Shown: piece by piece, positions 2,207-50,641 of the stretch
Numbering within the stretch: the stretch's first letter is position 1
Layout of the letters: each line of letters opens with the position of its first letter
Source: Dehalococcoidia bacterium
GTDB lineage: Bacteria > Chloroflexota > Dehalococcoidia > UBA6926
DNA length: 64,000 bases
NCBI GenBank assembly: GCA_965247995.1
Contig: OZ252041.1
Location: 494,197 to 558,196, forward strand
Direction: 5' to 3'
The notes under the pieces: model-generated
Databases searched by the model: none
What the model saw: the letters and a program-made list of their open reading frames with translations, nothing else
Told to the model about the DNA's origin: nothing
Program-made: the position numbers and the translations under genes

Positions 2207-5210
<3,004 letters not shown>

Positions 5211-5309
5211 ATTAAAGACCCTCATGTTTGCCTCGTTCACGAACACTCTTGATCACCAACAAAGTTGGCCTGTTCACTTGTTAGGGCACCAGCTACCCGT
5301 CGGCTTCGG

Positions 5310-5384
<75 letters not shown>

Positions 5385-5393
5385 AGACCAAAA

Positions 5394-5424
5394 CGAGGCC
5401 CCTCGGATGAGGGGCCTCGTTTTT
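5394..5424 (+). terminator. Rho-independent terminator after tRNA-fMet
   Basis: CGAGGCCCCTC-GGAT-GAGGGGCCTCG hairpin followed by TTTTT. Confidence 0.7.
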
Positions 5425-5457
5425 GATTGTTCTGCAGTGCGCGGTGCGCCCGGCAGG

Positions 5458-6384
5458 TCAGGCCACGTCCCGCAACACCCCCAAAAGCCACCGCTTGAAG
5501 TCGCGTTGTTTCACGCCGAATAGCCGCCCCAGCAACCCCATGTCAGGAGCCGGTTGCAGGAAGCGCGCCGAGATCTCTTCCCGAGCAAGTTGGTGCGCCC
5601 GCGGCCAGTCTTCTTCCTTCTCCGCGGCCTCGCGAAGCGGGACGATGTCGTCCGGGTCAACGTACTCGACCTCCGGCTCGCGCCCCACAATCGTCCCCAA
5701 GTACTCCCAATACTCGCGGCGCGTCGGTGAGACCGGACCCCCCAGCTCGAATGTGCGGTTCCGAGTCCGTCGGTCGACGTGCGCGTTGATGCAGTAGTCG
5801 GCAAGCTCGTCCAGGAAGATGAAGACCATCGGCTGGTCGGGGGTCCCAACGATGCGGAACGTCTCTCCCTCCGAAGCCCGCTTCGCCATCCCCTTGAACA
5901 TCGCCCCCGTCGTATCAATGATGCCACCCGGTCGGAGGATCGTGTACGGCACTCCGGACGCCATGAGGTACTGCTCGGACCGCGCCTTCGCCGGATATAC
6001 GGGGTAGAACGACCACTCGGTGCCCGCCGACCGCACCGTGATGAGCGTCATATGCCTGACGCCCTGCCGTTTAGCAGCGTCGACCATATTCGCCGTCCCT
6101 TGGTATTCCACCTTCTCGATCTTGTCGATCCCGCGCTGAGCCGCTTGCGCCCCCACGGTCGCGATCACGTAGTCGACACCTTGAGCGGCGGCAACGAGCG
6201 AATCGACATCCTCGTAATCGCCCTGGACGTACTCGACGCCGACGTTCGGAAGGTGGTCCGGCGAGGTCGAATGGACGAGTGCCCGCACCTGAGCACCAGC
6301 CTGCACTAACTTCCGCACAACGTGGCTTCCCGTCCTTCCGGTCGCGCCGGTAACCAGGTATCTCTCCCGAGTGGCAGTCGTCAT
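5458..6384 (-). CDS. NmrA-like / atypical SDR NAD(P)H-binding protein
   Basis: Rossmann motif LVTGATGRTGSHVV. Start set at the internal ATG (MTTATRERYLVTGATG, about 6384) behind an AGGAG RBS; the longer ORF overlaps the upstream gene. Confidence 0.6.
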   Translation of the reverse strand: MTTATRERYLVTGATGRTGSHVVRKLVQAGAQVRALVHSTSPDHLPNVGVEYVQGDYEDVDSLVAAAQGVDYVIATVGAQAAQRGIDKIEKVEYQGTANMVDAAKRQGVRHMTLITVRSAGTEWSFYPVYPAKARSEQYLMASGVPYTILRPGGIIDTTGAMFKGMAKRASEGETFRIVGTPDQPMVFIFLDELADYCINAHVDRRTRNRTFELGGPVSPTRREYWEYLGTIVGREPEVEYVDPDDIVPLREAAEKEEDWPRAHQLAREEISARFLQPAPDMGLLGRLFGVKQRDFKRWLLGVLRDVA

Positions 6385-6409
6385 GCGTTCTCCTGTGTCG
6401 TCAGCTGCG

Positions 6410-7621
6410 TCACCTCGGTAGACCGAGACCCCGCTGCGCAATGATGTTGGGCCCAAGCAGGATTCCGCCGCCGCCGCCGAATCCCAGTGCCAACGCGAGG
6501 TCCGCGTTCGTCCCGTACATCCCGTTGTTCGGTGCGCGGCTCTCACCGTTCAGACACGCTGCATACTGCTGGACAATGCTTCCGAGCGTCGGCCAGAAGT
6601 GGAACTTGGCGGTCACCTGATTGTGATACCCAGAGATCGCCCCCTCGGCCTGTGGCACGTCGCCCCGGGCTTCCATCCATGCGACACGGTAGGCAAGCAT
6701 CCGGTCGGCTTCGACCATCACCCGGAGGTCGGCCAACTTGTTTCGCACGATGGGGTCCGACAGCACCGGTTCACCGTTGAACGTGGTCTCGCGCATCACA
6801 TCCAAGAATCGGTCCAGCACACCGATGTGCCGCGCCGGCCCATCGACCCCAGTCCGCTCGAAGTTCAACGTAGTCATCGCCGCGTACCATCCACGGTTGA
6901 CCTCACCGATCAGGTTGGTCTTCGGTACGCGCACCTCATCCATGAAGATCTCGTTCCAACGACGCTTCCCTAGCATGTCGTACAGCGGACGGAGCGTCAC
7001 ACCGGGCGTGTACACACCATCGTCGTCCCGCAGCCGCATCGCCAGATACGTGATTCCCCGATGTTTCGGCGCGGCCGGATCGGTCCGGACGAGCACGTGG
7101 TACCAGTCTGCGAAGTGCGATGCGGAGCTCCATATCTTCTGGCCAGTGACCACATAGTCATCGCCGTCCTCGACGGCGCGCGTCTGCAGATTCGCCAAAT
7201 CGGTTCCCGCATTCGGCTCGCTGAAACCCTGCGCCCAGTGGATCTCGTTCCTTGCCATCCCGGAAAGGAAGTAGTCCTTCATCCAGTCAGACCCGTGGAC
7301 CATGATGGCGCCGGTGATGTTCCCGCCAGGCGACCCAGCAGGTGCATCCGCGTAGGCTAGTTCCTGTCGGTACACGAACTGTTTGCTCAGTGGAACGTCT
7401 TGCCCACCGTGTTCCTTGGGCCAGTGCATCGTCCACCAGCCCTTCTTAATGAGTTTCTGCGCGAACTCGTCCGCGAGGTCGCGCGCCTCCGCGTTGTCGA
7501 AGTCGAACGACCTCGTCGTCATGCTGTACGCGTCGAACCCCTTTGAGTCCCATTCTGCGGCCAGGAAGGCTCGCACCTCGTCACGGAACGCCTCATCCTC
7601 TGCGGTCAGCGTGAAATCCAT
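6410..7621 (-). CDS. Acyl-CoA dehydrogenase family protein (paralogue F, subtype II)
   Basis: 403 aa. Starts MDFTLTAEDEAFRDEVRAF; contains GFSEPNAGTDLA, GQKIWSSASHFADWYHVLVRTDP and TTLNFERTG; ends GGGGGILLGPNIIAQRGLGLPR. Homologous to the five tandem copies at 51-58.5 kb. Confidence 0.8.
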   Translation of the reverse strand: MDFTLTAEDEAFRDEVRAFLAAEWDSKGFDAYSMTTRSFDFDNAEARDLADEFAQKLIKKGWWTMHWPKEHGGQDVPLSKQFVYRQELAYADAPAGSPGGNITGAIMVHGSDWMKDYFLSGMARNEIHWAQGFSEPNAGTDLANLQTRAVEDGDDYVVTGQKIWSSASHFADWYHVLVRTDPAAPKHRGITYLAMRLRDDDGVYTPGVTLRPLYDMLGKRRWNEIFMDEVRVPKTNLIGEVNRGWYAAMTTLNFERTGVDGPARHIGVLDRFLDVMRETTFNGEPVLSDPIVRNKLADLRVMVEADRMLAYRVAWMEARGDVPQAEGAISGYHNQVTAKFHFWPTLGSIVQQYAACLNGESRAPNNGMYGTNADLALALGFGGGGGILLGPNIIAQRGLGLPR

Positions 7622-18598: not shown

Positions 18599-19915
18599 GT
18601 GTCCGCCTCCGCGTTCCTCCTCGTTCCAGTCGCTTTCGTCGCACTCGGCCTTGCCATTGTCTTCGTTTCGGCCAGTGCCGCGTTTTCACGCCTCCGGGAC
18701 GATCGGATAGAGCGGCTCGTCCAGCGCCGCGTGGACGGTGCCCGACGCCTTGCTTCCCTCGCCAACAGGCGCGAATCCCTCGAGATGGCGCTCCTCATCG
18801 TCCGCGGCGCAACCACCGCCACCTTCGCCATCACCGCGTACGCAGTAACGTTGCGCCTCACCCCCATGGAGTGGTTCGAAGTGCCGTTGGGCATTGCAGT
18901 GGCAGTGGGCGGAGTCGTGCTCGCACAGGCAGCCGGAGGGGTGTGGGCAACATCCGACCCGGAGAAAACCGCCCTTAAGTTAGCTCCCGTCGGAGCGGTC
19001 TCGCTCGCCATCTTCAGGGTCCCAGCGAACGCCCTTCTCACGCTGTACCGACCGCTCACACATCGCCTGGTGCACGGCCGGAATGGCGCCGCGTCCAACG
19101 CCAGCAGGCAGGACACGGGCAGCGACGACGCTGGCACAGACACATTCGCCGAGGTCCTCACCGATACCGACGAGGAGCTCGAACGCAGGATCAACCGTGG
19201 CGTCTTGAACCTAGAATCGATGGCGGTTCGGGAGATAATGATCCCCAGGCCGGATATCATCGGGATCTCTACCGACGATGATCTCAATAGCGCCGTGGAG
19301 CTCGTGAACAACGCTGGTTTCAGCCGGCTCCCTCTCTACCACGAGACTCTTGATGAAATCCGAGGTGTCCTCTACGCCAAGGACCTCCTTGCCGCCATGC
19401 ACCGGGCGCCCGAGAACGGCAACAGACTCGAATCCTTGGCGCGGTCAGCCTATCTGGTTCCCGAGACCAAGCGACTCGGTGACCTGCTTCGCGACTTCCA
19501 GGAACGGCGCGTCCACATCGCGCTCGTCGTCGACGAGTACGGCAGTATCGTCGGCCTAGTCACGAACGAAGACGTCCTGGAGGAGCTCGTCGGCGAGATC
19601 GATGACGAGTTCACGGCCAGCGAGCAGCTCATCGAGTCCCACGGCCCGGGCGAAGCCATCGTCGACGCCCGCGCGCCGCTCAAGTCGGTCGGTGAGGCGT
19701 TTGGAATCGAGTTCGAGGCGGAGGGCTTCGACACACTCGGCGGTCTGATCTTCCACAAGCTCGGACGCATCCCCACCGTCGGTGAGACCGTCACGGAGGA
19801 CGGCGTGACGCTCAAGGTGCTGTCGACCGCCGGCCGCCGCATACGCCGCGTGCAGGTCACGAGCGACTGGGCATCACCCCGAGGTACACACGCATCAGGA
19901 CGGGATCCGGCATAG
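18599..19915 (+). CDS. CNNM/HlyC-CorC family protein (DUF21 membrane domain + CBS pair + CorC_HlyC)
   Basis: 438 aa; N-terminal TM helices; CBS region LESMAVREIMIPRPDI...; C-terminal transporter-associated domain; GTG start behind a GAGG RBS. Confidence 0.7.
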   Translation: MSASAFLLVPVAFVALGLAIVFVSASAAFSRLRDDRIERLVQRRVDGARRLASLANRRESLEMALLIVRGATTATFAITAYAVTLRLTPMEWFEVPLGIAVAVGGVVLAQAAGGVWATSDPEKTALKLAPVGAVSLAIFRVPANALLTLYRPLTHRLVHGRNGAASNASRQDTGSDDAGTDTFAEVLTDTDEELERRINRGVLNLESMAVREIMIPRPDIIGISTDDDLNSAVELVNNAGFSRLPLYHETLDEIRGVLYAKDLLAAMHRAPENGNRLESLARSAYLVPETKRLGDLLRDFQERRVHIALVVDEYGSIVGLVTNEDVLEELVGEIDDEFTASEQLIESHGPGEAIVDARAPLKSVGEAFGIEFEAEGFDTLGGLIFHKLGRIPTVGETVTEDGVTLKVLSTAGRRIRRVQVTSDWASPRGTHASGRDPA

Positions 19916-19954: not shown

Positions 19955-19984
19955 CAAAAGGCCCGCCGGATGGCGGGCCTTTCT
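19955..19984. terminator. Bidirectional rho-independent terminator between convergent genes
   Basis: AAAGGCCCGCC-GGAT-GGCGGGCCTTT perfect hairpin flanked by A/T runs. Confidence 0.65.
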
Positions 19985-20016: not shown

Positions 20017-20649
20017 CTACTTCTCTACGTCCGGTGGCGGAACCTCGTCTGCGGCCCGCACCCACAGCGCAGCACTTGCAACTGTCGGCCCGGACCTGTC
20101 GCTCGGGACTCGCTCACCCATGATCCGCACGGTGTAGATCCCAGGCTCAAGATCCATCGGGATCGCAGGCCGTTCGGCCGATCCAAGCGTCAAAACGAGA
20201 GCACCTTTCGCGTTTACCTGGCTCGTGCCCATTACGTAGTCTTGGGCGGGGCCAAACGCCTCAGTGATCATCGCCGTCACGTTGTCTCGACGTAGGAAAC
20301 CGGACAGCACGACCGTTACCGTCTCCGATCCCGGCACGTACACATCTGTCATAGCGATCATCGCCGCAGCCTCAGACGCTGCAGCATCTTCACCCGGGGC
20401 GCCATCGGCGCCATCCATCCCGTCAGCACCCGCAGGACCAGCCGAGCCTGTCGCACCAGGCGCGCCAGGCGCACCTGTAGCGCCCCGCGCCCCATCGGCG
20501 CCATCAGCGCCATCAGCGCCTGCTGCCCCATCGGCGCCTGCCGCCCCTTGCGCACCGATTGCCCCTTCGGGCCCAGTGCATGCCGCGATCAGAAACAGGC
20601 CTAGTACAGACAGTCCGAGGGCTTGGAACAATGTCTTGCCTCTGAACAC
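20017..20649 (-). CDS. Collagen-like (Gly-X-Y) repeat lipoprotein, highly acidic
   Basis: GTG start behind a GAGGAGG RBS gives MFRGKTLFQALGLSVLGLFLIAAC (lipobox). This is followed by 20 uninterrupted GXY triplets (GPEGAIGAQGAAGADGAAGADGADGADGARGATGAPGAPGATGSAGPAGADGMDGADGAPGE) and a ~110-aa C-terminal domain. The longer track ORF (to 21075) is spurious because it runs through two tRNA genes. Confidence 0.65.
   Translation of the reverse strand: MFRGKTLFQALGLSVLGLFLIAACTGPEGAIGAQGAAGADGAAGADGADGADGARGATGAPGAPGATGSAGPAGADGMDGADGAPGEDAAASEAAAMIAMTDVYVPGSETVTVVLSGFLRRDNVTAMITEAFGPAQDYVMGTSQVNAKGALVLTLGSAERPAIPMDLEPGIYTVRIMGERVPSDRSGPTVASAALWVRAADEVPPPDVEK
20397..20576. repeat. Triplet-periodic GC-rich tandem repeat encoding the collagen-like GXY tract
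   Basis: Reiterated GGCGCCATC / GGCGCCTGC nonamers. Confidence 0.6.
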
Positions 20650-20846
20650 GCGTTGAGACCTCCTCACTACGATTAGCAATCGAAAGAATATGCCGAATCG
20701 AGCCTCTGCTATCTGCGAGACCCACGCCATAGTAGGGAGCCGCCTCAAACCCGTCAAGTCAGCTCGAGTTGGACGTGCGTCTTCCGTCCACCGGCACCGC
20801 GATTCCGTACGTATAATGCGCCGCGGAGGGGCACCGGCTTCGCACC

Positions 20847-20933
20847 GGAGAGGTGGCCGAGTGGACGAAGGCGCCGTTCTCGAAAAGCGGAGTCCTTTAA
20901 CCGGGACCGTGGGTTCGAATCCCACCCTCTCCG
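20847..20933 (+). tRNA. tRNA-Ser (anticodon CGA)
   Basis: GGAGAGGTGGCCGAGTGG...CCGTT-CTCGAAA-AGCGG anticodon stem-loop, long variable arm, GGGTTCGAATCCCAC T-arm, discriminator G. Confidence 0.8.
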
Positions 20934-20937
20934 CCGC

Positions 20938-21026
20938 GGAGAGGTGCTGGAGTGGCCGAACAGGCACGCCTGGAAAGCGTGTAGGGTCTTCACGGGCCCT
21001 CGCGGGTTCGAATCCCGCCCTCTCCG
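20938..21026 (+). tRNA. tRNA-Ser (anticodon GGA)
   Basis: GGAGAGGTGCTGGAGTGG...CACGC-CTGGAAA-GCGTG anticodon stem-loop, long variable arm, GCGGGTTCGAATCCCGC T-arm; sits 4 nt after the preceding tRNA-Ser. Confidence 0.8.
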
Positions 21027-21184
21027 CCGACCCAGCCCCAAGAATCCCGATCAACTCGCAATGCCTTGTGAGCACTGTCGGTCGAGTGAGTACCGGATAC
21101 CAGCAGTCCGACGGGGCCCCGGCACACGGCCGCCAAACACGTGGCGCAACGCGGAGGCTTGGCTGAGCGTCAGCGTCCTCCGAG

Positions 21185-21634
21185 TCAAGCGTTGGACAAG
21201 CGCCGCATCAGATTCGCCATCTCGATCGCGGCGTTCGCGGCATCCGCCCCCCGGTTCGAACCCTTCGCGCCGGTCCGCGCCATCGCCTGCTCAATCGTGT
21301 CCGTCGTCAGGACACCGAACACCGCAGGCACGCCGGTCTTTGGCCCGATCCGCCCGACGCCCTCCGCGGCCACCTTCGCCACGTAGTCGAAGTGCGCCGT
21401 TTCGCCTCGGATCACCGCGCCCAGACAGATGATTGCTGCATAGCGGCCCGACGTGGCCATCTGCATGGCGACGGTCCCAAGCTCAAACGACCCCGGAACC
21501 CGCACGACATCGATGTCCTCATCTGCGATATCGTGCCCGTCCAGCGCGCCCAGCGCTCCCTCGAGCAACCGGTCCGTAATAAGCTCGTTGAACCGGGCGA
21601 CGACGACTGCTAACCGCATTCCGCCCGCATCCAT
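21185..21634 (-). CDS. ribH: 6,7-dimethyl-8-ribityllumazine synthase
   Basis: MDAGGMRLAVVVARFNELITDRLLEGA...VFGVLTTDTIEQAMARTGAKGSNRGADAA aligns with RibH; start chosen at the internal Met (track ORF extends to 21754). Confidence 0.85.
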   Translation of the reverse strand: MDAGGMRLAVVVARFNELITDRLLEGALGALDGHDIADEDIDVVRVPGSFELGTVAMQMATSGRYAAIICLGAVIRGETAHFDYVAKVAAEGVGRIGPKTGVPAVFGVLTTDTIEQAMARTGAKGSNRGADAANAAIEMANLMRRLSNA

Positions 21635-21666
21635 TGAGGTCTTGATGACGTTCGGCACGGTGAGGC

Positions 21667-22995
21667 CTAGTCCCGCGCGACGGACGTGAGCTCGAGCCCG
21701 CACTCGGAGCAGAATCGGGCGTCCGCCACATGGCCGGTACCGCACCGCGGACATGCCACGACGGGCCCTTGGGGAACGTCGGGTATCGGCTCCAATCCAC
21801 CACCCAAAAGGTGTCCGAGTTTGTCTCGCTTCGTCTCGAGGTATCGCCGGTTGTACTCGTTCGGTGCTGCCGCGATCGGGACTCGGTCAACCAACTCCAG
21901 CCCGAACGCGTCGATGCCGACGACCTTACGTGGATTGTTGGTCATCAACGCGACTTTTCGCACACCCAACTCGACCAGAATCTGCGCGCCGACACCGTAG
22001 TCCCGGAGGTCGGGCGGGAAGCCGATCCTCTCGTTGGCCTCGACCGTATCCAACCCGGTGTCCTGAAGCGCATACGCTCTGATCTTGTTGTGGAGGCCAA
22101 CCCCCCGGCCCTCCTGCCGCATGTAAAGAAAGACGCCCTTCCCGGCCTCCGCGATCTGTTTCAGTGCCAGGTCGACCTGTTCTCCACAGTCACACCGCAG
22201 TGAGCCGAACACATCACCCGTCAGACACTCGCTGTGCACCCGCACCAGAGTCGGTTCGTCCGGGTCGATCTCACCCATCGTCAGTGCAACATGCTCCGCC
22301 GGGTCTATCGAACTCCGGAAGCCGACAGCGGTGAAGATGCCATGTCGTGTCGGCAACCGCGCCTCAGCTTGCCGCTCCACCAGGCTCTCGCTCTGGCGTC
22401 GATGGGCAATGATCTGTGCGACGGTCACGATCGGGATTCCCCACTTCGCGGAGAACTCCTCAAGGTCCGGCATTCGCGCCATCGTCCCGTCGTCGTTCAT
22501 GATTTCGCAGATAACCCCGGCAGGGTAAAGCCCCGCCAGGTTCGCGAGGTCGATGACCGCCTCGGTCTGCCCAGCGCGCATCAACACCCCACCCTCCCGA
22601 TAACGCAGTGGGAAGACGTGGCCAGGCCGTGCCAGATCGGTCGGTTGTGTCAGCGGATCAACCAATGCTTTAATCGTCTTCGATCGGTCCGCGGCCGAGA
22701 TACCGGTCGTCACCCCTTCTTTCGCATCGACGGACTGCGTGAACGCGGTGGCGAAAACCGCCGTATTGTTCGTGACCATCAGCGGCAGGTCCAGCTGCTC
22801 GAGCCGCGCGCCCATCAGGGGGGCGCACACCAGCCCACGGGCATGGGCCGCCATGAAATTGATCTGCTCCGGCGTCACCATCTCGGCGGCCAGCGCGAGG
22901 TCTCCCTCGTTCTCACGGTCCGCGTCATCCACAATGATCACGAACTCGCCCTGACGGATCGCTTCGACGGCCTCGTCGACGCTAACGACTGGCAT
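21667..22995 (-). CDS. ribBA: Bifunctional DHBP synthase / GTP cyclohydrolase II with a C-terminal zinc-ribbon extension
   Basis: DRENEGDL (RibB) plus the RibA core (CDCG...GRGVGLHNKIRAYALQD). Extra C-terminal ~60 aa ...ACPRCGTGHVADARFCSECGLEL carries a CxxC...CxxC motif. Start is probably MPVVSVDE (about 22995); the longer ORF runs to 23037. Confidence 0.85.
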   Translation of the reverse strand: MPVVSVDEAVEAIRQGEFVIIVDDADRENEGDLALAAEMVTPEQINFMAAHARGLVCAPLMGARLEQLDLPLMVTNNTAVFATAFTQSVDAKEGVTTGISAADRSKTIKALVDPLTQPTDLARPGHVFPLRYREGGVLMRAGQTEAVIDLANLAGLYPAGVICEIMNDDGTMARMPDLEEFSAKWGIPIVTVAQIIAHRRQSESLVERQAEARLPTRHGIFTAVGFRSSIDPAEHVALTMGEIDPDEPTLVRVHSECLTGDVFGSLRCDCGEQVDLALKQIAEAGKGVFLYMRQEGRGVGLHNKIRAYALQDTGLDTVEANERIGFPPDLRDYGVGAQILVELGVRKVALMTNNPRKVVGIDAFGLELVDRVPIAAAPNEYNRRYLETKRDKLGHLLGGGLEPIPDVPQGPVVACPRCGTGHVADARFCSECGLELTSVARD

Positions 22996-48361: not shown

Positions 48362-50641
48362 ATGGGTGGTGGACTATTGGGCCTCGGCCTCGCACGAGGG
48401 CTTGCTCTGGCCGTCGTGAGCCTCGCGATCGCGGTCGCCTGCACGTCCGAGCCAACCAGTTCCTCTTCCGACACGACGCCCGTCTCGACGGAACCTGCCC
48501 CCGCAGCGCCGGCGGCCCCGACCCCTGAACCATCCCCAATAACGTCGGATACCTCCGATTCCGCATCAGCGGCCGCGACACCAGAGACACCGACCGCCAC
48601 TCCTACATCCGCGCCGGAGCCCGCAGCCACCGCAACCGCAACCAGAGTCCCCGCTACGCCGACGCCCACCCCCTCGCGCACCCCCGCCGCGGAGCCGGTG
48701 GCCTCGTATGTCAACGGGCTATACGGATTCTCCGTGCAGTACCCCGACACCTGGTCCGTCAACGAGACCGATAGCCCATCCCCCGTTGCCATCTTCGACG
48801 CCGGCACGGAAGACCTCAGCGTCCAGGCATACGTCCGCTACTACCGTGCGCGCCTGACCGCGTCAGAAGCCGCTGAACAGGAAATCGCCCCACTCGCTGG
48901 CCTGCCGAACTTCCGGACGATCATCGAGGCGCCGGTCACCCTTGAAGACGGCACCGAGACCTACCAGATCCTCTACGGCTTCGGCACCGGACAGGAAGAA
49001 CGTCGCGGCGGCCTGACCTTCGTTACCGAGGACACGCGAGCTACCGTCCTCCACGCCGTCGGGCCACGCCGCACGTATGAAGACAACCTGAACGGTATCG
49101 ACGCGTTCCTGAACAGCATCAAGATCGAACCCCAGCGCCCATTCGGAGTCGCGCGCGGGGACGCGCTCGTCCTGTCGCTGGACGACGGCCCTATCACTCT
49201 CGATCCCGCCATAGCAGTGGAGAGCCAATCAGGCCAGTACATCGGCCAGGTGTTCGACGGCCTCGTCGCGTTGGATGGCGATCTCAATGTCGTCTCCGAC
49301 CTGGCCGCGTCGTGGGAGGTCTCCGACGACGGCCTCACTTACACCTTCATTATCGACCCCGAGGCCACGTTCCACGATGGGACCGCTGTACTCGCATCGG
49401 ACGTCGTGTACTCCTGGGAGCGGGCAGCGGATCCGGATCTTGCCTCGTCCATCGCACGCACATACCTAGGTGACATCGTCGGGTTCGAAGAACGGGCTAG
49501 CGGCGCCACTGAGTCGATCAGTGGGCTGCAGGTTGTCAACGATCAGACGTTGACCGTCACGATCGACTCACCAAAGAGCTACTTCCTTTCTAAGCTCACA
49601 CACACGGCTGCTTCGGTCGTTCAGCGTGCGAATGTCGAGTCCGGAACGGGCACTTGGTGGCTCCAACCTGTCGGGACCGGGCCGTTTGCGGTCGCGGAGT
49701 GGATCCCTGATGTCGCGATGCACCTGGAACGCCACGCGGACTACCATGGACTGCTTCCGGAGGTCGAGAATGTCGTCTTCCGATTCCACGCGGGCGTCCC
49801 CTTGCGGATGTTCGAGGACGGTGAGATCGACGCCACTCGACTCTCTCTTGCCGAGTTCAACATCCTCGGTGACGAGCAGAGTCCGCTGCTGGACAACATC
49901 ACGACCCAACCACAGCTCTCCGTGAACTATCTCGGTTTCAATGCCGCCGTTGCCCCGTTCGACGATGTGAACGTCCGAAGGGCGTTCTTGCTCGCACTCG
50001 ACCGTCAGTCCATCGTCGAAGAGACGCTCAATGGGATCGGCGTGCTCGCGCACGGGTTCTTACCGCCCGACCTCCCGGGCTACGACCCGGATATTGAGGA
50101 GATCGTCTTCTCGCCCGCGGCTGCACTCGCGGCGCTCGAGTCCTCAAAGTACGGCAGTGCGGATGGCCTGCCGGAGATCACAATTTCGACACCCAGTCTT
50201 GCGCCTCACGTAATGGAAATGATCGCCATGTGGCAAGAACACCTTGGCGTCTCTGTCGGCATCGACTTGGACCCGGACACTAGCTACTTCTACGACTTCG
50301 ACAACGACAGGCCAGGCCTCTTTGTGTCCGGGTGGATCGCCGACTACCCAGACCCGCACAACTTCTTGGATGTCCTGTTCCATTCGACCTCGGACAGCAA
50401 CTTCGGCCGGTTCTCCAGTGCCACGGTCGATGACTTGCTGGTCCAGGCGCGTACCGAGACAGACGCGGACGAACGCATACGCCTCTATCGCACCGCCGAG
50501 CGGATCCTCGTCGCAAATGGCGCGGCGATTCCGCTCTGGTTCGGGCAGGTCAAGGTCTTGACCGCACCCCAGGTCCAGGGTTTCGTGATAGACGCCCAGG
50601 GCAGGATTGACCTCGCCAAGGTCACGCTCACTGAGCCCTAG
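48362..50641 (+). CDS. Lipoprotein: Pro/Thr/Ala-rich linker + unknown domain + ABC substrate-binding domain (family 5)
   Basis: Start MGGGLLGLGLARGLALAVVSLAIAVAC (lipobox) behind a GGAGGA RBS. About 100-aa low-complexity PTA linker, then an SBP_bac_5-like region (VARGDALVLSLDDGPITLDPA...). Confidence 0.7.
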   Translation: MGGGLLGLGLARGLALAVVSLAIAVACTSEPTSSSSDTTPVSTEPAPAAPAAPTPEPSPITSDTSDSASAAATPETPTATPTSAPEPAATATATRVPATPTPTPSRTPAAEPVASYVNGLYGFSVQYPDTWSVNETDSPSPVAIFDAGTEDLSVQAYVRYYRARLTASEAAEQEIAPLAGLPNFRTIIEAPVTLEDGTETYQILYGFGTGQEERRGGLTFVTEDTRATVLHAVGPRRTYEDNLNGIDAFLNSIKIEPQRPFGVARGDALVLSLDDGPITLDPAIAVESQSGQYIGQVFDGLVALDGDLNVVSDLAASWEVSDDGLTYTFIIDPEATFHDGTAVLASDVVYSWERAADPDLASSIARTYLGDIVGFEERASGATESISGLQVVNDQTLTVTIDSPKSYFLSKLTHTAASVVQRANVESGTGTWWLQPVGTGPFAVAEWIPDVAMHLERHADYHGLLPEVENVVFRFHAGVPLRMFEDGEIDATRLSLAEFNILGDEQSPLLDNITTQPQLSVNYLGFNAAVAPFDDVNVRRAFLLALDRQSIVEETLNGIGVLAHGFLPPDLPGYDPDIEEIVFSPAAALAALESSKYGSADGLPEITISTPSLAPHVMEMIAMWQEHLGVSVGIDLDPDTSYFYDFDNDRPGLFVSGWIADYPDPHNFLDVLFHSTSDSNFGRFSSATVDDLLVQARTETDADERIRLYRTAERILVANGAAIPLWFGQVKVLTAPQVQGFVIDAQGRIDLAKVTLTEP

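Follow-up and report, generated by a model that had tools for sequence, protein, structure and literature searches.

A predicted collagen-like lipoprotein with an Ig/macroglobulin-like C-terminal domain at a conserved locus of marine Chloroflexota

Comparison with described collagen-like proteins

Bacterial collagen-like proteins are known chiefly from pathogens, spores and phages, where an LPXTG motif or an exosporium-targeting peptide serves as the anchor, or the protein is a component of a tail fibre. A search of the literature on collagen-like proteins with a lipobox recovered Bucl8 from Burkholderia only, a lipoprotein of the outer membrane that belongs to a fusaric-acid efflux pump and has a collagen-like tract (PMC7682875). 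In this protein, a (GAS)n tract with Ala in the X position and no Pro forms a triple helix as determined by CD (PMC7682875). The protein studied here is encoded in a 64-kb stretch of DNA, all of which was analysed and is referred to below as the window. It is similar to Bucl8 in having an N-terminal lipidated Cys at residue 24 (predicted for the window protein) and about 20 Gly-X-Y (GXY) triplets with Ala in X, and the modelled rod of Bucl8, (GAS)19, of about 163 Å is of similar length to the stalk proposed below. In contrast, Bucl8 is a 594-aa channel of the OEP/NodT type, whereas the window protein has no OEP domain. Furthermore, the tract in Bucl8 is C-terminal and extracellular, and its (GAS)n array is perfect and differs in copy number between strains (6-38 copies), while that of the window protein starts 2 residues past the anchor, has an acidic composition and a degenerate DNA repeat, and leads into a folded Ig-like domain.

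The closest NCBIfam matches of the window protein are the Scl1/Scl2 (SclA/SclB) families, with which it shares a lollipop layout of an anchored collagen stalk and a globular head, and which represent a bacterial triple helix without hydroxyproline, as proposed here for the stalk. However, the Scl proteins have the opposite polarity, with the V domain at the N-terminus and an LPXTG sortase anchor at the C-terminus, and their tracts contain many charge pairs, as compared to an almost purely acidic tract in the window protein. Membership in Scl1/Scl2 (NF038330/NF038329) was rejected, with scores of 32.9 against 400 and 35.7 against 325 that were obtained from the GXY tract only. No LPXTG motif was found in the window protein, which ends in ...EVPPPDVEK.

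BclA from the Bacillus exosporium likewise combines N-terminal attachment, a GXY stalk and a C-terminal globular domain, but is attached via an exosporium-targeting peptide, as compared to a predicted lipid in the window protein. In BclA, the helix is nucleated by the C-terminal domain, a trimeric jelly roll of the C1q/TNF type. Membership of the BclA type was rejected: the head of the window protein is modelled as an Ig/MG-like sandwich of seven strands, and the structural matches listed for it include no C1q/TNF chain. Lcl from Legionella pneumophila resembles the window protein, as predicted here, in being secreted and envelope-associated with a C-terminal non-collagen domain; Lcl is type II-secreted, has no lipobox and has a strain-variable number of repeats. 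The score for the corresponding family (NF046116, adhesin_Lcl) was 27.3 as compared to a cut-off of 500, again from the GXY tract only, and membership was rejected.

Gene structure, signal peptide and acidity

The gene is located on the minus strand, between a convergent gene for a CorC-like membrane protein and a divergent pair of tRNA-Ser genes. The features of the locus are as follows:

18599-19915, plus strand: CNNM/CBS/CorC_HlyC membrane protein of the CorB/CorC-type divalent-cation transporter family (identified with Pfam), convergent neighbour
19956-19983, minus strand: terminator-like hairpin, 8-bp GC core extended to 12 bp, ending in a U-run
20017-20649, minus strand: CDS for the predicted collagen-like lipoprotein, 210 aa, GTG start at 20649-20647 and TAG stop at 20019-20017, supported by orthologues and dN/dS
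20020-20385, minus strand: C-terminal 122 aa, comprising a short Ala-rich linker, a modelled beta-sandwich and an acidic Pro-rich tail
20386-20574, minus strand: collagen-like region of 21 uninterrupted Gly-X-Y triplets, residues 26-88
20578-20649, minus strand: predicted signal peptide and lipobox, residues 1-24, codon for Cys24 at 20580-20578
20659-20665, minus strand: Shine-Dalgarno sequence GAGGAGG, 9 nt before the GTG, AGGAGG invariant at 4 orthologous loci
20729-20757, minus strand: promoter-like site TTGACG, 17-nt spacer, TACTAT, from a consensus scan and conserved in the 4-locus alignment
20847-20935, plus strand: tRNA-Ser (anticodon CGA), divergent from the lipoprotein gene
20938-21028, plus strand: tRNA-Ser (anticodon GGA), 2 nt past the first tRNA

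Translation of 20649 to 20017 on the minus strand yielded the same 210-aa protein as quoted in an earlier, sequence-only reading of this DNA, which had moved the start to a GTG preceded by a Shine-Dalgarno sequence. This correction is borne out by the comparative data, in that both elements are kept at the 4 loci and the GTG is found at the identical position in all five orthologous genes. The reading frame is in turn backed by the orthologues, which are 45-78% identical with dN/dS values of 0.1-0.3. The pN values are far below the pS values in the collagen part as well as in the C-terminal part, and the gene is under purifying selection. Upstream, the TTGAC and TAnnAT of the promoter-like site are kept in the 4-locus alignment. 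Downstream, the terminator-like hairpin is located where the lipoprotein and CorC-like genes converge (-32.4 kcal/mol over a 71-nt stretch, z = -3.1) and was missed by the consensus scan. A conserved RNA structure in the 5' UTR and start region was unsupported (RNAalifold -11.4 kcal/mol, covariation term 0).

The N-terminal segment, MFRGKTLFQALGLSVLGLFLIAAC, contains R3 and K5 followed by an uncharged hydrophobic core (h-region, residues 6-20) and then I-A-A-C24, so that the lipobox reads LIAAC. With a K/R n-region, an uncharged h-region and Cys24, it agrees with the signals of lipoproteins according to a PROSITE-type lipobox rule ([LVI][ASTVI][GAS]C, Cys at 15-35), which was applied by hand. 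The AF2 model represents residues 5-24 as a helix. The lipobox Cys is invariant in all 14 aligned relatives and nearly so in an alignment of 58 sequences, in line with the textbook lipoprotein signal originally described, and the lipidated Cys is the predicted mature N-terminus. A second lipobox protein is encoded in the window, the SBP_bac_5 solute-binding protein at 48362-50641 (lipobox AIAVAC), which agrees with a functional lipoprotein pathway; solute-binding proteins held by a lipid anchor are a typical feature of envelopes with a single membrane. The mature form of the collagen-like protein has a pI of 4.05 and a net charge of -15.5 at pH 7.5. The extreme acidity noted earlier thus holds, as this pI is below those of all 59 long ORFs in the window (lowest 4.2, median 5.7). 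We conclude that the gene is real and was previously mis-called, and that its product is small, very acidic and membrane-anchored, the anchor being predicted.

Collagen-like tract, C-terminal domain and proposed assembly

The sequence-only reading had placed 20 Gly-X-Y triplets at 20397-20576; the tract is indeed uninterrupted, but it comprises 21 triplets and is located at 20386-20574. Ala occupies X in 16 of the 21 triplets and Asp occupies Y in 8, while Pro is found at 5 of the 42 X and Y positions, as compared to 25% for the family. Across all six frames of the window, no other run of at least six GXY triplets was found, and the probability of a 21-triplet run by chance is about 1e-22, with glycine assumed at about 9% of residues. 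The Pfam Collagen model (PF01391) scores 38.7 bits over residues 29-86, above its gathering cut-off of 27.2. The reading had staked its claim on a lipobox, on a region that scores as a collagen repeat and on this reading frame; the lipobox was found, the Collagen score passes and the frame was confirmed. RTX-type Gly/Asp calcium-binding repeats were considered and rejected, since no Pfam match to RTX/HemolysinCabind was obtained in the protein and no hydrophobic position was seen by eye in a nonapeptide register.

The tract had also been suggested to be prone to contraction and expansion, and a comparison of copy numbers among strains had been called for. The repeat DNA is degenerate, with 71-86% matches in the longer arrays and one perfect two-copy unit of 9 nt, and its longest exact repeat is 14 nt. 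The triplet number is the same in the one near-identical contig (L014), a comparison of little power, and a slippage-prone repeat is not supported. Between species, the number of triplets varies from 17 to 23.

The C-terminal domain, previously estimated at about 110 aa, was confirmed as a domain but with a corrected size of 122 aa, including a beta-sandwich of about 103 aa (residues about 95-197, 20059-20367). In the AF2 model of the C-terminal part (pLDDT 87, pTM 0.78), the fold class is shown to be a beta-sandwich with seven strands that resembles Ig and macroglobulin domains, and this folded unit comes directly after the GXY tract. The nearest known domains are the MG and bacterial Ig-like E-set domains (alpha-2-macroglobulin, complement C3/C5, Big_1/Invasin_D3, RbmA), but the structural matches are generic, with TM values of 0.56 or less and identities of 10-21%; such matches assign no ligand to the head domain. 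A search of the C-terminal profile against the PDB gave a single marginal match, to the Hoc Ig-domain (E 0.003), which fits an Ig-like fold, and a Pfam search of the whole protein gave nothing above threshold outside Collagen. In giant proteins, this C-terminal domain is repeated in tandem with as many as 38 copies, and matches to MG2, Gmad2, Invasin_D3 and Big_1 were obtained for these proteins.

We consider it probable that the product is a small cell-surface lipoprotein that forms a homotrimer, in which a collagen stalk holds the Ig-like heads off the membrane. The Sec signal peptide would be processed at the lipobox, between LIAA and C, and the lipidated Cys24 would fix the protein to the outer face of the cytoplasmic membrane. 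Starting two residues on, the 21 Gly-X-Y triplets of three chains would form a collagen triple helix of about 18 nm (63 residues x 0.286 nm), strongly negative, Ala/Asp-rich and Pro-poor, which would keep the three C-terminal Ig/macroglobulin-like beta-sandwich domains distant from the membrane. We infer lipidation, the trimeric triple helix and surface exposure, and propose that the protein, chromosomally encoded and vertically inherited, belongs to the envelope of a marine Chloroflexota bacterium (Dehalococcoidia-type), with a likely structural or adhesive role as a spacer, surface fringe or binding module.

A less probable reading is that of a monomeric lipoprotein in which the GXY tract is a flexible, acidic low-complexity tether to a single Ig-like domain, with no triple helix. 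Lipoproteins commonly have long disordered tethers past the lipidated Cys, and the SBP_bac_5 lipoprotein in the window has a disordered tether of this kind. The collagen region is Pro-poor and is left unstructured in the AF2 monomer (pLDDT 49-62), which speaks against a trimer and, with the strong net negative charge, fits a tether. However, the tether of the SBP lipoprotein is a non-periodic Ser/Thr/Pro segment, and a plain tether therefore needs no GXY periodicity. Gly at every third residue is not required by a tether, yet the Gly columns are all invariant in 14 relatives while X and Y are free to vary. Also, a single uninterrupted GXY run is found in 63 of the 69 family members despite the range of 10-41 triplets (median 21) and free turnover at X and Y, and the length differences between orthologues are whole triplets. 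Moreover, the absence of Pro does not prevent triple-helix formation by the Bucl8 (GAS)n tract (PMC7682875).

Returning to the trimer, the tract carries 10 acidic residues and 1 basic residue, and stabilising ion pairs would therefore be missing from the stalk. In the host-guest peptides that Persikov and co-workers studied in 2000, Asp at Y is reportedly among the less favourable residues, so the helix may be marginally stable or need counter-ions. Ig/MG-like domains are also not known to act as trimerisation modules.

Family distribution, genomic locus and gene annotation

The family comprises at least 69 protein clusters, of which the named ones are all from Chloroflexota/Dehalococcoidia. 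Its members have a layout in which the lipobox Cys is followed by 10-41 GXY triplets and then by one or two Ig/macroglobulin-like domains, and in 56 of the 69 (lipobox plus collagen) the first Gly is located at Cys+2. In the source records they are labelled "hypothetical" or, once, "collagen-like protein". A scan of genomes and of metagenomes with a back-translated pattern, which is narrow, recovered one locus each, and searches at the protein level yielded much more information. No report of this architecture was found in the literature on collagen-like proteins in Chloroflexi, Dehalococcoidia and SAR202. The combination of a lipidated Cys, a stalk and Ig/macroglobulin-like heads is thus apparently undescribed, and it is conserved in many lineages of marine Chloroflexota, all from uncultured organisms.

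The gene is at a conserved core-genome locus. Synteny is kept in L001, L002, L005, L006, L008 and L014, and the GC content is uniform over the region. The divergent tandem tRNA-Ser pair described earlier was confirmed, with both genes on the plus strand 197 nt upstream of the lipoprotein gene, and it is in the same position at L001, L002, L005 and L008. The CorC-like gene is the one neighbour that is common to the window lineage and to distant family members (30-39% identity), the neighbours of which otherwise differ. Together with the acidity of the collagen region throughout the family, this would fit a coupling of the lipoprotein to the adjacent CorC/CNNM-type transporter, as a Mg2+/Ca2+ surface buffer or through cation-dependent folding. 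We regard such a coupling as improbable: the two genes are convergent and therefore not co-transcribed, the CorC-like neighbour is absent at one distant locus (L011), and TopA, GlmU and the tRNA-Ser pair recur close by in differing arrangements, which is better explained by an old syntenic block than by selection for the pair. Also, no known cation-binding motif was recognised, RTX/HemolysinCabind in Pfam included.

A more far-reaching version of the trimeric stalk, which we likewise hold to be doubtful, would make the lipobox-collagen-Ig proteins a main organiser of the envelope, forming a dense, acidic fringe of about 18 nm that spaces an outer surface layer. Because the helix starts at Cys+2, the membrane anchors would set the register of the chains, and cation-dependent folding or stability would explain the deeply conserved adjacency to the gene for the CorC/CNNM Mg2+ transporter.

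It is very improbable that the gene is a remnant or domesticated collagen-like tail-fibre gene of a phage that was inserted beside the tRNA genes. The gene does adjoin tRNA genes, which are frequent integration sites, and a search with the whole protein matched tail-fibre families in PHROG with E-values down to 4.5e-16. However, nearly all of these matches are located within the GXY tract (residues about 25-93), with a few that reach somewhat beyond, and a phage origin was rejected on the grounds that phage proteins match the tract only. Homologues of the C-terminal domain in phage tail fibres, which the sequence-only reading had proposed to look for, were not found: the domain alone gave 0 matches to PHROGs, no tblastn match in 50,697 phage genomes, none in IMG/VR contigs and nothing at E <= 0.001 among BFVD structures. 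Furthermore, the neighbours are housekeeping genes with no phage genes among them, the GC content shows no local shift, and the position of the gene is constant in species in which the protein is only 45-78% identical. The reading as a phage remnant is effectively refuted.

Equally remote is the possibility that the true product is the 352-aa ORF, another frame or the 114-aa ORF of a public assembly. A mechanical ORF of 352 aa does extend from 20017 to 21075, and on a public contig that is 99.95% identical (L014) the gene has been called as two ORFs of 65 aa and 114 aa, both wrong. Since the public gene call is split, the exact 210-aa protein is absent from the records of public assemblies. 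The 352-aa extension overlaps both tRNA genes, and because its AGFEPA and VGFEPT peptides fall within the tRNA coordinates, it is artefactual and reads the antisense strand of tRNA-Ser(CGA) and tRNA-Ser(GGA), as had been recognised from its "GFEP" peptides. The ORFs of 65 aa and 130 aa are shadow frames of the repeat. The Shine-Dalgarno sequence, the GTG start, the signal peptide and the GXY frame are all conserved among the orthologues, and the sole SNP in the tract between the window and the near-identical contig leaves the amino acid unchanged when read in the GXY frame. These alternative products are effectively refuted by the conservation of the 210-aa frame across species.

Automatic gene calling thus fails here, either by an over-long ORF across two tRNAs or by two wrong fragments, and annotation of the family is therefore probably incomplete. 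Should the stalk prove to be a true triple helix, the protein would represent a natural collagen that is minimal, poor in Pro and highly acidic and that carries its own membrane anchor, which would be useful for studies of folding and register in hydroxyproline-free collagens and would provide a first handle on the envelope of these uncultured organisms.

Gene structure, lipobox and collagen-like tract

The collagen lipoprotein is encoded by a real gene with a GTG start at position 20649, and its 210-aa product has the layout MFRGKTLFQALGLSVLGLFLIAAC / T / (GXY)21 / AAASEAAAMIAMTDVYVPG...PPPDVEK (translation of 20649-20017). As the sequence-only reading had it, the gene is divergent from a tandem tRNA-Ser pair and the GTG follows a GAGGAGG motif; the spacer to the tRNAs measures 197 nt.

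Features of the collagen lipoprotein locus (window positions)
20649-20017, reverse strand: collagen lipoprotein coding sequence (GTG 20649-20647, TAG 20019-20017, 210 residues)
20665-20659, reverse strand: GAGGAGG ribosome-binding site, 9 nt from the GTG
20757-20729, reverse strand: promoter-like TTGACG-17-TACTAT, inside the spacer between the gene and the tRNAs
20386-20574, reverse strand: GXY tract of 21 uninterrupted triplets, residues 26-88
19983-19956, reverse strand: GC-rich, terminator-like hairpin, 8-bp GC core extended to 12 bp, U-run at the end
20847-20935, forward strand: tRNA-Ser(cga), identified by ARAGORN and Rfam
20938-21028, forward strand: tRNA-Ser(gga), identified by ARAGORN and Rfam
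18599-19915, forward strand: gene for a CNNM/CBS/CorC_HlyC protein (CorC-type cation transporter), convergent with the collagen lipoprotein coding sequence

Seven full-length orthologues with 45-78% identity, recovered from metagenome assemblies and MAGs, could be aligned end to end. The GTG start was found at the identical position in all five orthologous genes compared (5/5), and four orthologous loci have kept the promoter-like hexamers, the AGGAGG, the GTG and the distance between these last two. Both the collagen part and the C-terminal part have diverged much less at nonsynonymous than at synonymous sites, with dN/dS values of 0.1-0.3 in the range where dS is unsaturated. The hairpin, which is located downstream between the gene and its convergent neighbor, was not picked up by a consensus terminator scan.

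The signal peptide, recognized as that of a lipoprotein already in the sequence-only reading, contains R3 and K5 in the n-region, an uncharged hydrophobic core and the motif I-A-A-C24, which satisfies the classical lipobox rule applied by hand; all 14 aligned relatives keep the cysteine. The mature protein is small and extremely acidic, as had been noted (187 aa, 18 kDa, pI about 4.05, net charge about -15.5), and its acidity exceeds that of all 59 long ORFs in the window. The signal-peptide DNA (20591-20650, reverse strand) is 100% identical to that of the closest relative, locus L001 (pS 0.05), while the remainder of the gene has only about 63-83% identity and nearly saturated synonymous sites; in locus L008, the portion 20591-20620 is 93% identical. 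In the RNAalifold structure the LFLIAA codons pair with the region of the start codon, with zero covariation seen.

The GXY tract scored 38.7 bits against Pfam Collagen (gathering cut-off 27.2), and a six-frame scan identified no other run of at least six triplets in the window. The array is uninterrupted, as first described, but comprises 21 rather than 20 triplets and covers 20386-20574. Alanine occupies the X position in 16 of the 21 triplets and aspartate the Y position in eight, and the tract as a whole includes 5 Pro, 10 acidic and 1 basic residues. Family members generally have a tract with net negative charge, and this protein lies at the Pro-poor, Asp-rich end of the range (Pro 12% vs. 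25%, acidic residues 24% vs. 12% of X+Y). The tract does change length over evolutionary time: triplet numbers of 17-23 were counted in orthologues from different species, which differ in length by whole triplets only. The proposal that the array is prone to contraction and expansion was not borne out as a present-day property: Tandem Repeats Finder reported mainly imperfect repeats with periods of 9 and 18 nt (match rates of 71-86% in the longer arrays) and a single perfect 9-nt unit in two copies, exact direct repeats reach at most 14 nt, and the sole near-identical strain available for a copy-number comparison, the public contig L014, has the same number of triplets. By contrast, the (GAS)6-38 array of Bucl8 is perfect and strain-variable (PMC7682875).

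The C-terminal domain and its family

The C-terminal 122 aa were matched by no Pfam family. AlphaFold2, with an alignment of 58 sequences, confidently predicted a seven-strand beta-sandwich of Ig-like fold (pLDDT 87, pTM 0.78); no C1q/TNF chains were among the structural matches listed. When 1.84 billion cluster representatives were searched with a profile built only from the C-terminal domain, 958 proteins had E <= 0.001, of which 174 had E <= 1e-10. Those proteins present the domain in two settings, the first of which is tandem arrays in giant proteins, with up to 38 copies in a protein of 4536 aa, partly recognized by Pfam as MG2, Gmad2, Invasin_D3 or Big_1. Five such proteins of 1300-4500 aa (P0121, P0122, P0123, P0125, P0126) contain 10-38 tandem copies, and P0126 has two identical copies followed by a trypsin-like protease domain.

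The second setting is many small proteins of 180-300 aa, 69 of which, among those collected, combine a lipobox with a collagen tract followed by one or two copies of the C-terminal domain. The first glycine is located at Cys+2 in 56 of these 69 members, 63 of the 69 have one unbroken GXY run, and the number of triplets is 10-41 (median 21). The named source organisms are Chloroflexota/Dehalococcoidia MAGs, several of which are also recorded in the TARA collection, and the product names are "hypothetical protein" and, once, "collagen-like protein". Locus L010 encodes two members in tandem (5001-5564, single-domain, 187 aa; 5721-6584, 287 aa), both beside a CorC-like gene, which indicates a local duplication within the family.

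Proposed mode of action

After Sec export, Cys24 would be diacylglyceryl-modified and the signal peptide cut off, so that the protein would be tethered at the outer leaflet of the cytoplasmic membrane. Three chains would then wind into a collagen triple helix that begins almost at the anchor, has a length of about 18 nm (63 residues x 0.286 nm) and presents three Ig-like heads. If the cell has a single membrane, such a stalk would be long enough to extend to the cell surface. Envelopes with one membrane typically carry lipid-anchored solute-binding proteins, and the window encodes a predicted one, a 759-aa SBP_bac_5 protein (48362-50641, forward strand) with the lipobox AIAVAC, a non-periodic Ser/Thr/Pro/Ala-rich tether of ~90 aa after the cysteine and an additional N-terminal region ahead of the SBP domain. 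Its presence is consistent with a working lipoprotein pathway.

A single chain serving as an acidic tether is an unlikely, though not negligible, alternative: the tract is unstructured in the AlphaFold2 monomer model, has few prolines and lacks charge pairs. Asp in the Y position is also unfavorable in host-guest data, so that the stability of a triple helix may be low or counter-ion-dependent. Ig-like domains are not known to serve as trimerization modules. A helix is nevertheless favored over a floppy tether because the Gly periodicity is strict across relatives despite heavy X/Y turnover and whole-triplet length changes, because the SBP_bac_5 protein uses a tether that is not periodic, and because the Pro-free (GAS)n tract of the lipoprotein Bucl8, with Ala in X, forms a triple helix as measured by CD, its (GAS)19 being modelled at 163 A (PMC7682875).

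Genomic setting, origin and relation to known proteins

Read from the strand of the collagen gene, the order is the rib operon (ribD, ribE, ribBA, ribH), the two tRNA-Ser genes and the collagen lipoprotein, followed by the convergent CNNM/CBS/CorC_HlyC gene, RNase HII, DinB_2, MnmA and EamA. L001 shares the full order, and the part running from the two tRNAs to EamA is found again in loci L002, L005, L006 and L008; GC content is uniform across the region. The gene belongs to the vertically inherited core genome, because neighbor order is kept in relatives with protein identity as low as 45%. The two tRNA-Ser genes, cga and gga, also stay in tandem in L001, L002, L005, L008 and L009. Close relatives have 2-3 nt between them, and L009 has 101 nt, with the pair at a distance of about 4 kb from the collagen gene. 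Elsewhere in the window, a complete 23S rRNA gene (2207-5212, forward strand) is followed by tRNA-Met(cat) (5310-5384, forward strand); no 16S rRNA was found in the 2.2 kb upstream and no 5S rRNA downstream (5150-7500), even at a relaxed E-value, which suggests an unlinked arrangement of the rRNA genes.

A CorC-like gene tail-to-tail with the collagen gene was also observed in L001, L002, L005, L006, L009, L010, L012, L013, L015 and L016, with one gene intervening in L009 and in L010. It is the only neighbor that the gene studied here has in common with the distant members (30-39% identity; L009, L010, L012/L013, L015/L016), whose other neighbors differ. This retention could reflect functional coupling to the transporter, which would be compatible with an anchored stalk, but we consider it improbable: the two genes are convergent, L011 is the only exception seen to the adjacency, and TopA, GlmU and the tRNA-Ser pair are likewise found in the vicinity, in rearranged order. 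Given the convergence and the rearrangement, an old syntenic block is the simpler reading.

A phage origin, which the sequence-only reading had named among the usual sources of bacterial collagen-like proteins, has very little probability: PHROG tail-fibre matches of the whole protein were mostly confined to residues about 25-93, i.e., the GXY tract, whereas the C-terminal domain alone had 0 matches in PHROGs, tblastn against 50,697 phage genomes and an IMG/VR scan found nothing, Foldseek against BFVD gave nothing at E <= 0.001, and the core-genome locus has no phage genes nearby.

It is equally hard to believe that the gene model is wrong, although other models exist for this DNA. Among the mechanically listed ORFs is one of 352 aa (20017..21075), rejected as the product and correctly called an artefact from the outset, which reads antisense through both tRNA-Ser genes and has "AGFEPA" and "VGFEPT" within the tRNA coordinates. 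An antisense 130-aa ORF and an off-frame 65-aa ORF were discarded as shadow frames of the GXY repeat. L014 (ENA ERZ26167216 ctg468320) matches 6345 nt of the window at 99.95% identity (3 SNPs, 0 indels), and only one of the SNPs lies inside the tract, where it alters the last base of the Ala63 codon and leaves the amino acid of the GXY frame unchanged. Positions 2807-3345 of L014 (window 20017-20555) are covered by two wrong calls, an off-frame ORF of 65 aa and a truncated one of 114 aa, and the 210-aa product has no record in the protein collection. The mechanical ORF for ribH (lumazine synthase; 21185-21754, reverse strand) has 189 aa; its true start is probably internal, since the Pfam domain begins at residue 45 and orthologous calls have 149-157 aa.

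With Scl1/2, BclA, Lcl and Bucl8 the protein would share the lollipop shape and mode of working of bacterial collagen-like surface proteins, but it is a member of none of them. It lacks the LPXTG motif and V domain of Scl1/2, the C1q-like domain of BclA and the OEP domain of Bucl8, whose perfect repeat array also differs from the degenerate tract DNA found here. NCBIfam collagen-adhesin models (Scl1/2, Lcl) scored an order of magnitude or more under their cut-offs, over the GXY tract only. Distinct in combination are the predicted N-terminal lipid anchor with a putative helix immediately after it, the one or two Ig/MG-like heads, and the core-genome residence in free-living marine Chloroflexota. 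No description of lipobox-collagen-Ig-like proteins was found in the literature searched, and the overall kind of protein is already known; the gene is solidly real and its family coherent, if conceptually unsurprising. Its function is most plausibly structural or adhesive, as a spacer, fringe or binding module, and the generic fold matches of the C-terminal domain identified no ligand.
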